63,545 nt of DNA, filler included, from Octopus bimaculoides (GCF_001194135.2; 7 parts of 6 records of this genome joined end to end with filler, not necessarily neighbours in it), one strand, 5' to 3'; counted from the first letter of the whole stretch, positions 578-61,881 are shown. Translations and numbers: made by a program. The notes: generated by a model from the letters alone, not told the origin.

Positions 578-626
578 AGCCACTGACGAGCATTAATGTA
601 AATGTGAAATCACTGGTGATCTGGTT
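578..626 (+). ncRNA. Minimal type I hammerhead ribozyme (Penelope-like type)
   Basis: Helix I AGCCA/TGGTT; core CTGACGA (583-589); helix II GCATT/AATGT; GAAA (606-609); near-palindromic helix III ATCAC-TG-GTGAT; AUC cleavage triplet ending at 621. Confidence 0.8.
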
Positions 627-1692
627 AATTTTAGTTAAGTTTTGTTTATTTTCAGATCATTGAAATGGAATGTCAAGTTAAGGAAAACAAGCATTTTCAA
701 CATCTCCTTCTTTTTGCTTTTAATCAAGGTTCTAAGGCTGCAAAAGCTGCTCCCGACATTTGTGCTGTGTATGGAGAGGGTGCCATAGCTGAAAGAACCA
801 CTTGTGATTGGTATGCCAAGTTCAAAAATGGAAATTTTGACCTCAAAGACGCACCTCATTCTGGCCGTCCAGTTGAGTTCAATGAAGAGCGATTAAACCA
901 ACTTTTGCACGAAAATTCTTGTCAAACAACAAAGGAACTGGCAGAGAAAATGGAATGCTCCCACACAGATAGGGAAGCATCTTCACTTGATGGGAAAGGT
1001 TCAGAAGTATGGAGCATGGGTTCCACATTATTTAAGTGACAACAACAAAAATCAACAAGCTGTAATCTCTGCTGGTTTGCTTGCTTGTCACCACTTAACT
1101 CATGAACACAAGCAACGATTTCTTTACCGAATCGTTACTGGTGATGAAAAATGGTACCTGTTTATCAATATGAAGCAGCGTAAGGAATGGCTTGGCCCTG
1201 GTAAACAATGTTGTGCATATGGTGGGACTGGAAAGGGATTATCCATCATGAATTGCTTGAACGGAGCCAAATGATCAACGCGGAACTCTATGTTCAACAG
1301 ATGGAATGACTCAACACAGCTATTCAAGAGAAATGACCTAATCAGCAGCATGGAGTTCTTCTGCTGCACAACAATGCCCGCCCTCATATCACCAATATGA
1401 CCAAGGAAGCCATTCAAACGCATGGCTGGGAAGTGCTGCCACACTCACCGTACTCTCCTGATTTGGTACCAATGGACTTCCACCTCTTTCGATCTCTTTC
1501 AAATGCTACGCGTGAAGTTTTGTTCAATACTGATGCAGAATTGAGAGCTTGGTTGGATCAATTTTTCAAGTCGAAATCAGGTAATTTCTACCAACGAGGT
1601 ATTGAAAATCTTGTTGAATATTGAGAAGAAGTTGTAAACAACATGGGTGAATACATTATTGATTAATTAGTTGTTATTTTTTATTAAACCTT
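627..1692 (+). mobile_element. Decayed mariner (DD34D) transposase copy
   Basis: HTH N-terminus (665-), then WVPHYL, IVTGDEKW, CIWWDWKG, HNNARPH (second catalytic D changed to N) and YSPDLVPMDFHLF with 34 residues between the last two catalytic positions. It has frameshifts, stops and a short deletion near 1205. The right end runs into a gap. Confidence 0.95.
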
Positions 1693-1991
1693 TNNNNNNN
1701 NNNNNNNNNNNNNNNNNNNNNNNNNNNNNNNNNNNNNNNNNNNNNNNNNNNNNNNNNNNNNNNNNNNNNNNNNNNNNNNNNNNNNNNNNNNNNNNNNNNN
1801 NNNNNNNNNNNNNNNNNNNNNNNNNNNNNNNNNNNNNNNNNNNNNNNNNNNNNNNNNNNNNNNNNNNNNNNNNNNNNNNNNNNNNNNNNNNNNNNNNNNN
1901 NNNNNNNNNNNNNNNNNNNNNNNNNNNNNNNNNNNATGTAAAGCCCATTATTTATGCTTTTCTTATACATACATAAATACATACATAATTT

Positions 1992-2205
1992 TTTCTACTC
2001 TAGGCACAAAGCCCAGCATTTTTGGGGAGGAGGTATGTCGACTAGATCGACACCAGTATGCAACTGGTACTTAATTTATTGATTGCAAAAGGATGAAAGG
2101 CAAAGTTGACCTTAGCAGAATTTTAACTAAGAACATAAGGACAGACGAAATACTGCTAAGCATTTTGCCTGCTGTGCTAACGTTTCTGCCAGCTCACCAC
2201 CTTAC
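1992..2205 (-). mobile_element. tRNA-derived SINE, family A (central TTCATCCTTTCGGGGTCGATAAATTAAGTACCAG-like domain)
   Basis: Reverse-complement homolog of the copy at 48665-48914. Confidence 0.85.
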
Positions 2206-58139: not shown

Positions 58140-58194
58140 TCTGAATCGAACGATTTCGGGATTGATCCAACGGATTTTTCCACTCATCAGCAAA
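58140..58194 (-). ncRNA. Type I hammerhead ribozyme
   Basis: Minus strand: helix I TTTG/CAGA; CTGATGA; G10.1-C11.1 closing an irregular helix II with inner ATCC-GTT-GGAT; GAAA; helix III ATCG-TT-CGAT; AUU site. Confidence 0.6.
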
Positions 58195-61100
58195 GAGTAT
58201 ATATACATACATACATAAATGCATACACACACACACACACACACACACACACACACACACACACACACACACACACGTATATATATATATATGTGTGTGT
58301 GTGTGTGTGTGTATGTGTATAAATATATATATATATATATATATACATATTTACATATATGCATATATATACATACACACAAACACGTATATCACCTTGA
58401 ATGGCGCACGATTTGTGTTTTTAAGCAACAACGACGGATCGTTTATATACATATGTGTGTGTGTGTGTGTGTTTGTGTGAGTGTGTGTTTACGTGTATGT
58501 GTGCGCAGATACAAGTATATACGTATGCACGTCTGTATGCATATATATATATATAATATTTGTCAAGACCTGTCTAGTCATTTCTAAGAAAATGAGGAAG
58601 GTTCATTTGCTTTGCTATTTATCTTCGCAATCGTTTAGGCGTGAAATATAGACTGAAGCAAATATTAATTTTAAAGTTGTAGTAATGAAATATTATCATT
58701 TCAAGGAGTACTTCATATCTTTGATGTCTACTTATTGAAAATGCATAAAGAAAGAAAACGAATTTTTAATTTCTTCTCCACATATTCATTGCGGCAAATA
58801 TTTAAGGAAAATAAATCAATGCNNNNNNNNNNNNNNNNNNNNNNNNNNNNNNNNNNNNNNNNNNNNNNNNNNNNNNNNNNNNNNNNNNNNNNNNNNNNNN
58901 NNNNNNNNNNNNNNNNNNNNNNNNNNNNNNNNNNNNNNNNNNNNNNNNNNNNNNNNNNNNNNNNNNNNNNNNNNNNNNNNNNNNNNNNNNNNNNNNNNNN
59001 NNNNNNNNNNNNNNNNNNNNNNNNNNNNNNNNNNNNNNNNNNNNNNNNNNNNNNNNNNNNNNNNNNNNNNNNNNNNNNNNNNNNNNNNNNNNNNNNNNNN
59101 NNNNNNNNNNNNNNNNNNNNNNNNNNNNNNNNNNNNNNNNNNNNNNNNNNNNNNNNNNNNNNNNNNNNNNNNNNNNNNNNNNNNNNNNNNNNNNNNNNNN
59201 NNNNNNNNNNNNNNNNNNNNNNNNNNNNNNNNNNNNNNNNNNNNNNNNNNNNNNNNNNNNNNNNNNNNNNNNNNNNNNNNNNNNNNNNNNNNNNNNNNNC
59301 ATATATAAAAAATATGGTAAGAATGGATACACAAGGGTGGAATAGCACAGGAACAATTCCGTATATCCAACGCAAGTTTTGATATATTTGTGTGTGTGTT
59401 CAAAACATTCTAGAATCACAAAATATATAGTTTTAAGTCTCTAAAATGTCTAAAATAGTAAGATAAGATAAAATAAAGTATACAGGCATATACAAGGACA
59501 TAAACTTCAGAAATATCATGAATGTTCAACATATTTATTCAAACATATTTATTAACATGCATAGTTTCCAAGTTGTATAAAAATATTTAACAATTTAAGA
59601 CAATACATTACGATTTGCAAACGTACAGTATAATTTAACATATAGTGGGTAAATATATACAATATGATATGATATTACAAATTTATATGTACTATATTAA
59701 AAACGTGTACATTACAAAAGGATATGTATAAATACTATAAAAAAAAAACGTACAATACATAGGCAATGCTAAAAGTTTCCATCTACGAGCCGTTTCTTAG
59801 ATGCGTCTATTAATATGGTGTAGTACTCATATTAGAAATTAGACACTCCCTTCATTGGGATGTTCATTGTTACAGAAAGAGAGGAAATTTACAGTGACAT
59901 AATACAATATGTTAACATAAATGTAAAATCAAATGTACGTAATACATTACATCGTGGCCCTTTGAACCTGCGTTACTTGTAAATATAAATATTAAATGTG
60001 CTAATTAGATATTACTATATATGCCAATTAGATATTATTATATATGCTAATTAGATATTACTATATATTCTTTTTTTCTCTTTATATATGCATATGCGTA
60101 ATTCTGCATTTGAGGTAAAAAGAGCCATGACGTAATGTATTAGGTTCATTTGATTTTACATGTATGTTAAAATATTGCATTATGTAACTGTAACCTTATG
60201 TGTGTGTATATATATATGTGTGTATATATATAAATGTATGCATATATATATANNNNNNNNNNNNNNNNNNNNNNNNNNNNNNNNNNNNNNNNNNNNNNNN
60301 NNNNNNNNNNNNNNNNNNNNNNNNNNNNNNNNNNNNNNNNNNNNNNNNNNNNNNNNNNNNNNNNNNNNNNNNNNNNNNNNNNNNNNNNNNNNNNNNNNNN
60401 NNNNNNNNNNNNNNNNNNNNNNNNNNNNNNNNNNNNNNNNNNNNNNNNNNNNNNNNNNNNNNNNNNNNNNNNNNNNNNNNNNNNNNNNNNNNNNNNNNNN
60501 NNNNNNNNNNNNNNNNNNNNNNNNNNNNNNNNNNNNNNNNNNNNNNNNNNNNNNNNNNNNNNNNNNNNNNNNNNNNNNNNNNNNNNNNNNNNNNNNNNNN
60601 NNNNNNNNNNNNNNNNNNNNNNNNNNNNNNNNNNNNNNNNNNNNNNNNNNNNNNNNNNNNNNNNNNNNNNNNNNNNNNNNNNNNNNNNNNNNNNNNNNNN
60701 NNNNNNNNNNNNNNNNNNNNNNNNNNNNNNNNNNNNNNNNNNNNNNNNNNNNNNNNNNNNNNNNNNNNNNNNNNNNNNNNNNNNNNNNNNNNNNNNNNNN
60801 NNNNNNNNNNNNNNNNNNNNNNNNNNNNNNNNNNNNNNNNNNNNNNNNNNNNNNNNNNNNNNNNNNNNNNNNNNNNNNNNNNNNNNNNNNNNNNNNNNNN
60901 NNNNNNNNNNNNNNNNNNNNNNNNNNNNNNNNNNNNNNNNNNNNNNNNNNNNNNNNNNNNNNNNNNNNNNNNNNNNNNNNNNNNNNNNNNNNNNNNNNNN
61001 NNNNNNNNNNNNNNNNNNNNNNNNNNNNNNNNNNNNNNNNNNNNNNNNNNNNNNNNNNNNNNNNNNNNNNNNNNNNNNNNNNNNNNNNNNNNNNNNNNNN

Positions 61101-61834
61101 NNNNNNNNNNNNNNNNNNNNNNNNNNNNNNNNNNNNNNNNNNNNNNNNNNNNNNNNNNNNNNNNNNNNNNNNNNNNNNNNNNNNNNNNNNNNNNNNNNNN
61201 NNNNNNNNNNNNNNNNNNNNNNNNNNNNNNNNNTATATATATATATATATATATGTATATATATGTATAATACAATGGTTATTTCAAAAATTAATATTTC
61301 CCAAAATGGTATCGAGGGATATATAATCTTAATCGTAGCGGATACCACAGTAAATATTGATGAAACTCAAGTTAGTAATAATTTACTGTGCTCCGTTAAT
61401 CCTCACTTGGTAAATCCAAATGTCCTAATAAGCACTGCTTATTTTCCATGGAGATAACATAGTGAAATTTATAAAGATCAGGAGAACGGATATTTGGCCA
61501 TGCAAGTTAGTCACATTTTTATTCTCAAGATGCAGAAATAATTAACACCAAGAAGCACACTGATAAGTGTGTAGCGGCTGCAGAAGAAATATGTGTATGC
61601 TATGACGAAGAACGATGTGATTAACTGTATAATAAAGCTTAGATGCATATATCACCGTTGTCGTGATTTGTATTAATATATATGCATAACTATCACGAGG
61701 GTATTAAGATATACCTGCGTTGCTTAAAATACGAGCGAAAATGCTCTAATGTTGTAGTTAAATAACTGAAAATATAAATGAAAACACATACTAACAGAGA
61801 CCTGAATCGTCCGAAAACTGTCGATGGAGAATTC

Positions 61835-61881
61835 TTAATACTGATGTCAGTTTCACAAATTTCCGTTGCCTCATCAGTTAA
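61835..61881 (-). ncRNA. Type I hammerhead ribozyme at a Penelope-like ORF end
   Basis: Minus strand: helix I TTAA/TTAA; CTGATGA plus one extra G; helix II GCAA/TTGT; GAAA; helix III ACTGA-CA-TCAGT; GUA site. Directly upstream reads THLRIAKPSVN, similar to the I..KP.LN end of PLE GIY-YIG domains. Confidence 0.62.

Follow-up and report, generated by a model that had tools for sequence, protein, structure and literature searches.

A 63,545-nucleotide stretch of DNA from Octopus bimaculoides (the window; AT-rich animal DNA with plentiful microsatellites, 58,220 called bases and 5,325 N) carries eight type I hammerhead ribozyme folds, named here by coordinate and strand, that are real hammerhead motifs from seven independent insertions and whose cleavage sites are predicted from sequence. 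The folds are probably short, 5'-truncated and often inverted end-pieces (pseudo-long terminal repeats, pseudo-LTRs) of several families of Penelope-like elements (PLEs), most of them surviving as inactive relics. The initial annotation of this DNA had listed eight complete type I folds, and all eight were confirmed, no more than a few bases away from the coordinates it gave (Table 1). Its count of seven families holds as seven insertions, with 54084(-) and 54174(+) making up a single inverted duplication, and the sequences outside the core do not align between families, in keeping with its description of them as unrelated. High pair scores that seemed to link 49074 with 38114 and with 54174 were traced to N and TA runs, and both kinships were discarded.

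The window was compared with dinucleotide-shuffled controls, a check proposed in the initial annotation, in which the shuffled sequences fell far below the real count. A strict type I descriptor found two folds (583+ and 49081+) against 0.02 expected, and 0 of 300 local dinucleotide shuffles reached two. A wider descriptor, which permits an extra base after A9, one helix II bulge and two variant cores and which was composed after the motifs had been inspected, found exactly the eight folds and nothing else, against 0.19-0.20 expected, and 0 of 500 shuffles reached eight at each of two block sizes. Folds with a canonical core, counted alone, number five compared with 0.04 in shuffles, and when 179 permuted decoy cores were run on the real window, each gave at most one fold. 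Descriptors for hammerheads of types II and III matched 0 times and once, which is the level of chance. Besides the five canonical cores, the set includes one U3-A8 and two U4C cores, which are reported natural hammerhead variants (excerpt of PMC3088659).

We also considered the pairing of 20 nt of flank, which goes beyond what the descriptors demand. This pairing was better than that of 99% of shuffles for 32632, 49074, 54084, 54174 and 61835, and was not exceptional against shuffles for 578, 49943 and 58140. Helix I of the 32632 fold continues beyond a 2-nt bulge (flank pairing -15.9 kcal/mol, with 0.1% of 1000 shuffles as good), helix I of the 61835 fold resumes beyond an internal loop for about 9 more bp (-14.0 kcal/mol, equalled by 0.4% of shuffles), and the 49074 fold, which sits in an island of about 110 nt adjoining a TA/CA run, reaches a flank pairing matched by 0.6% of shuffles.

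Several observations would nevertheless fit the folds being chance matches in AT-rich repetitive DNA. The Rfam hammerhead models, which the initial annotation had also suggested running, gave no score to the folds: the whole-window matches that were listed (150 of 244), dominated by microsatellite matches to microRNA models, include no hammerhead family, and none was found in any of three short segments at E<=10. The minimum-energy fold is the hammerhead in none of the eight motifs, with the constrained hammerhead folds lying 2.3-8.0 kcal/mol higher, although this comparison is weak evidence because energy models ignore the non-standard pairs of the core. Taken singly, the 49943 fold is the weakest and falls within chance, as a minimal descriptor finds it once against 0.135 expected and 26 of 200 shuffles (13%) reach it, and the wider descriptor was, as noted, tuned after inspection. 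Set against these points are the excess of canonical cores, the decoy cores and the flank pairing of 32632, 49074, 54174 and 61835. Chance was rejected for the set as a whole, and we regard it as a very improbable origin of the folds.

Table 1. Hammerhead folds, associated repeats and other features of the window.
Feature	Position	Strand	Details
578 fold	578..626	+	core CUGACGA 583-589, AUC, helices I-II-III 5-5-6 bp; predicted cut after C621
32632 fold	32632..32678	+	core CUGAAGA 32639-32645, GUC, 7-4(one mismatch)-4 bp; predicted cut after 32671
49074 fold	49074..49163	+	core CUGAAGA, GUA, 4-3-5 bp, 53-nt helix II region; predicted cut after 49155
49943 fold	49943..49978	+	compact; U3-A8 core UUGAAAA, GUA, 3-4-3 bp, loop-less ACCGGU helix III
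54084 fold	54089-54124	-	U4C core CCGAUGA, GUA, 3-3-4 bp
54174 fold	54174-54219	+	U4C core CCGAUGA, GUA, 8-3-4 bp
58140 fold	58140..58194	-	core CUGAUGA, AUU, 4-4(bulged)-4 bp; weak helix I; begins 4 nt from microsatellite
61835 fold	61835..61881	-	core CUGAUGA, GUA, 4-4(extra base)-5 bp; predicted cut at 61839
Short interspersed repeat bearing the 578 hammerhead	452..624		two pieces, 452-520 and 521-624, whose order is inverted compared with copies elsewhere in the genome
Degenerate inverted copy of the 32632 fold	32257..32292	-	U3-G8 core; 45-nt deletion removes helix III and the cleavage site
Partly tandem repeat unit round the 32632 fold	32419..32846	+	tail 32419-32508 recurs at 32711-32846; abuts the inverted copy; ~290-nt period
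Identical inverted pair with CUGAAGA core (38120+, 37960-)	37891..38194	both	both enter N gaps; too incomplete to be scored as ribozymes
Head-to-head inverted insertion flanked by two (TA)n runs	53982..54249	both	carries the 54084(-) and 54174(+) folds
Two 207-nt direct repeats	56948-57154, 57765-57971	-	94% identical, 817 apart, end in (TA)n, just 3' of 58140; third partial copy 22272-22344
Broken mariner (Mos1-type) transposase	625..1666	+	ATG 665, 5' end missing; Pfam HTH_48 E 1.4e-18; 84% to O. bimaculoides mariner protein
Last coding exon (VWA-like domain), mucin-like gene LOC106879988	39943..40524	+	100% identity to residues 670-862 of its O. bimaculoides protein
Broken retrotransposon pieces of long interspersed nuclear element (LINE) type	24532-25390, 27957-28882, 33411-34076, ~50000-50400	-, +, -, +	RVT_1 at 27957-28217, zf-RVT at 33.4-34.1 kb
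DUF4817 helix-turn-helix frame	52370-52651	-	E 2.7e-8

The near-palindromic helix III that the initial annotation saw retained each time is indeed self-complementary in all eight folds (self-duplex -6.1 to -14.4 kcal/mol), fully so over 12 nt in 578, and it is loop-less or near loop-less in most. Without a loop, helix III takes two molecules or two tandem copies to form, and most of the folds would therefore need a dimer partner. The folds also bear defects across the set: the U4C core of the pair at 54 kb, a natural variant of lower activity in vitro (excerpt of PMC3088659), the helix II mismatch of 32632, the weak, unstable helix II of 61835, the 53-nt helix II region of 49074 and the deletion at 32257. 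Pair 10.1-11.1 is G-C only in 58140, being G-U in three folds, A-U in three and U-A in one. The G-U pairs are what CpG decay of CGAAA would give, and the CpG observed/expected ratio of the window is 0.50.

The repeats surrounding the folds, mapped by masked self-BLAST, bear on where the folds came from. Three inverted pairs are present (at 32.2/32.6, 37.9/38.1 and 54.1/54.2 kb) along with partial tandems at 32.4-32.8 and 56.9-58.0 kb, and the families of 32632 and 54174 have second copies in the window. The partial folds that had been noted at 32257(-) and 38114(+) are hammerhead-derived copies, but neither is a complete ribozyme; the 38114(+) motif has a G at the cleavage position and is cut short by an assembly gap, and its identical inverted twin lies at 37891-37961. 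The inverted duplication carrying 54084 and 54174 (196 nt, 96% identical) would form one long hairpin if transcribed. Each of the 207-nt direct repeats contains GAAA, a 10-nt palindrome, UU and, 13 nt on, CUGAUGA, so that the core halves stand in swapped order, and neither repeat forms a type I, II or III hammerhead fold. No tandem in the window holds two complete folds on the same strand, and no family has two same-strand copies in it.

This layout, with its three inverted pairs, an inversion at 520/624 described below and two partial tandems, matches the form known for PLEs. The terminal repeats of PLEs carry type I hammerheads, with a self-complementary helix III in flies, rotifers, shrimp and mosquitoes, and the motifs are mostly single, highly heterogeneous and found genome-wide, with opposite-strand pairs 100-700 bp apart (PMC4209133). 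Inverted 5'-truncated copies and partial tandems are typical of PLEs (excerpt of bioRxiv 2021.04.23.441226). Additionally, the U3-A8 core of 49943, a fold with a U-rich tract and CAG directly 5' of it, is listed for a PLE-linked S. mansoni motif, and both this core and A10.1-U11.1 without the extra base are found among PLE-linked motifs (S. mansoni(4), Marsupenaeus; part of the PMC4209133 supplement). Penelope families are plentiful in octopuses (excerpts of PMC13282606 and PMC8967140), including 30 among recently active insertions in O. vulgaris (excerpt of PMC13282606).

We infer PLE parentage of the folds, together with their inactivity and a dimer mechanism taken from the literature. On a precursor transcript of a parent element that carries two tandem copies, the motif would cleave after NUH, the copies acting as a dimer by way of their self-complementary helix III; for PLE hammerheads, monomers are reported not to cleave and dimers to cleave weakly (PMC4209133). 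Reverse transcription would begin at the 3' end of the element, near the ribozyme, and would often halt early or flip, and the product copied in by the elements' own reverse transcriptase and endonuclease would consist of 100-400 bases holding the ribozyme. Early stopping and flipping of this kind would explain the many families, the single copies, the inverted pairs and the (TA)n ends; the element at 54 kb lies between two TA runs. Lone copies with no same-strand partner and with accumulated changes would then cut host RNA poorly or never.

Some of our results weigh against this parentage or qualify it. Searches with Pfam of 220 frames (7 plus 149 longer frames, with 173 listed, and, close to the motifs, 64 of 65 short ones) found no remnant of a PLE reverse transcriptase or GIY-YIG domain. 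The only matches were to mariner/Tc1 helix-turn-helix, LINE-type reverse transcriptase, zf-RVT and VWA, besides a sub-threshold one to viral methyltransferase; such a lack is expected of short truncated copies, and the parentage therefore stays putative. The published minimal consensus has an extra base after A9 and G10.1-C11.1, and that G-C pair occurs in only one of the eight folds (58140). Four of the eight folds have a masked repeat or gap no more than 60 nt away, compared with 31% of random positions, a difference that is not significant. Family structure and copy number were examined for one of the seven insertions, that of the 578 family, which is dispersed and multicopy as judged from contig depth and joints. 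The 578 insertion is also common to a second species, a finding compatible with constraint, and the unit around 32632, with its period of about 290 nt and its long helix I, fits a non-LTR retrozyme equally well.

The last of these points raises an alternative, namely that a number of the motifs represent monomers of non-LTR retrozymes. These are short repeats without coding capacity that spread with PLE enzymes and whose tandem copies at other loci are transcribed, self-cleaved and circularised. The partly tandem 32632 unit, with its long bulged helix I, falls within the published size range of 150-450 bp, and retrozymes are present in molluscs, with about 5000 in mussel (excerpt of PMC7229834); solo monomers are described as common and evenly spread (excerpt of bioRxiv 2026.07.22.740005). 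The window, on the other hand, has no tandem with two complete same-strand folds, and RNA reads for the 578 family are near zero, albeit in libraries that can miss small circles. We consider this origin unlikely, and it overlaps with descent from PLE ends, as the same preprint derives retrozymes from them.

The 578 fold was followed furthest, with public data compared over 200-1250. Summed contig depth (run X2), which is not a copy number, is about 1,400-2,300 over 452-595, 39-290 in 308-451 and 20,000-390,000 from 632 on. The depth thus falls about 100-fold left of 620, where other copies of the adjoining mariner go on with T-rich sequence, leaving loose ends at 620; both observations imply that the 578 fold is part of a distinct repeat at 452-624 with much lower abundance. 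In contigs of two organisms, 520 is joined to 619, 623 or 624 on opposite strands, which means that other copies would have the piece running from 520 to 452 directly after the ribozyme. The start of that piece, 520 to 506 on the minus strand, can form 9 bp with the 5' strand of helix I (-10.6 kcal/mol; 3.5% of 2000 shuffles do equally well), unlike the mariner sequence that lies 3' of the fold today. Based on these joints and this pairing, the copy in the window reads as an inverted insertion whose break lies at most 3 nt from the predicted cut after C621, with the outer half of helix I lost. A contig of the second organism spans 200-627 with 37 differences, and the shared insertion would accordingly be older than the split of the two species. 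By eye, 485-520 (+) shows a further hammerhead-like string in degenerate form (TAAA replacing GAAA, with a CTGACAA core and a 4-bp hairpin), which ends at the 520 break.

Given that the fold stands 40 nt upstream of the mariner ATG, and that a GTAAG...TTTTCAG pattern (about 547-655) encloses it and ends 10 nt before that ATG, one might picture a mariner family carrying a hammerhead in an intron of the 5' untranslated region (UTR) just before the transposase start. Of 87 related mariner loci fetched, the 59 that match near the N-terminus were scanned (four had <150 nt upstream), and none has the fold upstream. In the closest loci, an ordinary terminal repeat stands some 170 nt upstream of the ATG, the T-rich AG stretch belongs to the usual mariner 5' UTR (L001-L004), and no splice joint crosses about 547-655 among the joints listed (15 of 44). 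The depth drop and the T-rich continuation in other copies likewise speak against such a family. The hammerhead as a mariner family trait was rejected on the 0/59 loci and the depth step at 620, and the intron arrangement has next to no likelihood in our estimation; the mariner is a neighbour of the hammerhead repeat and not its carrier. Two pattern scans of viral contigs gave 0 matches, no relative was found among such contigs, and a literature search for hammerhead plus mariner found nothing.

The mariner family itself is very abundant, with relatives at 79-84% in octopus, a mite and further records, which may reflect horizontal spread, and RNA reads come from both of its strands. Mariner-type relatives (26-72% identity) also occur inside prokaryote assemblies (loci L081-L087), mostly on short contigs that are likely host contamination; two of them, L085 and L086, sit on contigs of 125-145 kb.

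The initial annotation had also regarded several folds as probably intronic. The exon of LOC106879988 is the sole host exon that could be placed in the window, the remaining coding traces being broken transposons, and it is immediately preceded by a pyrimidine tract and an AG acceptor. Residues 1-669 of the protein are absent from the window. We read 1-39942 as a probable intron of this gene because those residues lie outside the window and the exon has a normal acceptor before it. The 578 and 32632 folds are then sense-strand within it, while the other six folds lie outside, 8.5-21 kb beyond the sole placeable stop codon.

It was further suggested that the motifs could cut pre-mRNA or release small or circular RNAs, which would agree with the host keeping them as intronic or intergenic cutters. 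The two sense-strand folds in the putative long intron suit such a role, as does the fact that 578 combines the best fold with an orthologous copy in a second species; 49074 and 49943 share a strand at a distance of 820 nt, and conserved intronic hammerheads are known in amniotes (excerpt of PMC6155905). The claim went unsupported in the window, where no fold has a same-family dimer partner on its own strand, six of the eight lie outside any placeable gene, and cores and helices are damaged. A search of RNA read ends, carried out at 578 only, found a depth of 0-1 across 272-595, compared with about 100-170 in the mariner, and no pile-up of ends at 621; the reads amount to about 6% of one pooled set, and with such low depth, in libraries from which small circles can be lost, the result is weak. 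No RNA record containing 300-1690 was listed either, a negative that says nothing about expression. Elsewhere, an anole PLE hammerhead required the protein of its element for cleavage in vitro, and RNA-seq gave no reads terminating at the cleavage site (excerpt of PMC11167929), while related repeats are depleted in frog introns (excerpt of bioRxiv 2026.07.22.740005). We find it quite improbable that the host keeps these motifs for cutting.

The other features of the window belong mostly to mobile DNA. The LINE-type pieces may be Hero/R2-like and RTE-like, and the DUF4817 frame is likely the start of a Tc1-like transposase. The region 25315-27980 is a mosaic in which a 200-400-nt repeat occurs at least four times, in both direct and inverted orientation and at 70-96% identity, and 7998-8378 is a minisatellite with 12 copies of a 32-nt unit. 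Inverted repeat pairs resembling miniature inverted-repeat transposable elements occur at 11811-12712 and 12795-13008 (87% over 193 nt; a 214-nt imperfect palindrome) and would give double-stranded RNA in transcripts. A 54-residue frame at 275-436 (+), one of 64 frames, has a sub-threshold Pfam match to a viral methyltransferase (E 1e-4, 22 bits against a cut-off of 27) that is probably due to chance.

The octopus genome measures 2.3-2.7 Gb. A paper by Lunse, Weinberg and Breaker in RNA Biol (14:1499) is said, going by its title, to deal with small PLE-associated hammerhead variants that cleave as dimers. Locally, the density of about one motif per 8 kb put forward in the initial annotation stands, at seven insertions per 58,220 called bases or one per 8.3 kb. 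If the window were typical, a few hundred thousand folds would be present genome-wide, above published counts per base, but such a figure extrapolates from one window chosen for richness and from a descriptor looser than published ones. We therefore offer only as a doubtful possibility that octopus genomes hold on the order of 100,000-300,000 hammerhead folds of very many unrelated families, invisible to Rfam and the densest per base yet reported in an animal, with a subset in long introns that could cut nascent RNA by pairing in trans or with the aid of a protein. No survey of hammerheads in octopuses or cephalopods was found in the literature searched, and Lunse et al. or the PMC4209133 supplement may bear on novelty. 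Only the unusual local density gives the folds remaining interest beyond their known kind. Should it hold genome-wide, the motif would be a simple tag for short PLE relics overlooked by repeat annotation, and cutting of host pre-mRNA could be tested in large numbers as intronic depletion of intact sense folds.

Among known systems, the conserved intronic hammerheads of amniotes (RECK and others; excerpt of PMC6155905) share with 578 and 32632 a type I fold in sense orientation within an intron, which here is the putative one of LOC106879988. The folds in the window differ in belonging to dispersed repeats and in being damaged or split by inversion. Non-LTR animal retrozymes (excerpts of PMC7229834 and bioRxiv 2026.07.22.740005) are likewise non-coding type I repeats of a few hundred bases with solo monomers chromosome-wide, but the window has no tandem of two complete folds, and no RNA was seen for the one family examined. 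The class was already known, as the initial annotation acknowledged, with PLE-type hammerheads reported by the thousands in many animal genomes: minimal motifs number about 2,000+1,300 in S. mansoni, 4,000 in coelacanth and 9,000 in X. tropicalis (Cervera and de la Pena 2014, PMC4209133), while coral has >6000 motifs in 16 families, mussel about 5000 and axolotl, with its much larger genome, up to 120,000 (excerpt of PMC7229834), and giant squid has 235 Rfam hammerhead matches (excerpt of PMC6962438). In comparison with the PLE motifs of Cervera and de la Pena (PMC4209133), the folds in the window have no adjacent PLE frame, seven of the eight lack G10.1-C11.1, and helix III, at 6-12 nt, exceeds the length it has in the strict minimal form; the density of one per 8 kb is above what their counts imply, with descriptors that differ. 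The likenesses to those PLE hammerheads comprise the type I topology, the self-complementary helix III, the U3-A8 variant, the U-rich 5' flank, the many heterogeneous families per genome, the predominance of single copies and the opposite-strand pairs. PLE-linked hammerheads with a short palindromic stem III and dimer cleavage are described elsewhere as well (excerpt of PMC6765202), and it is to this known PLE-type class that the present folds add octopus examples.

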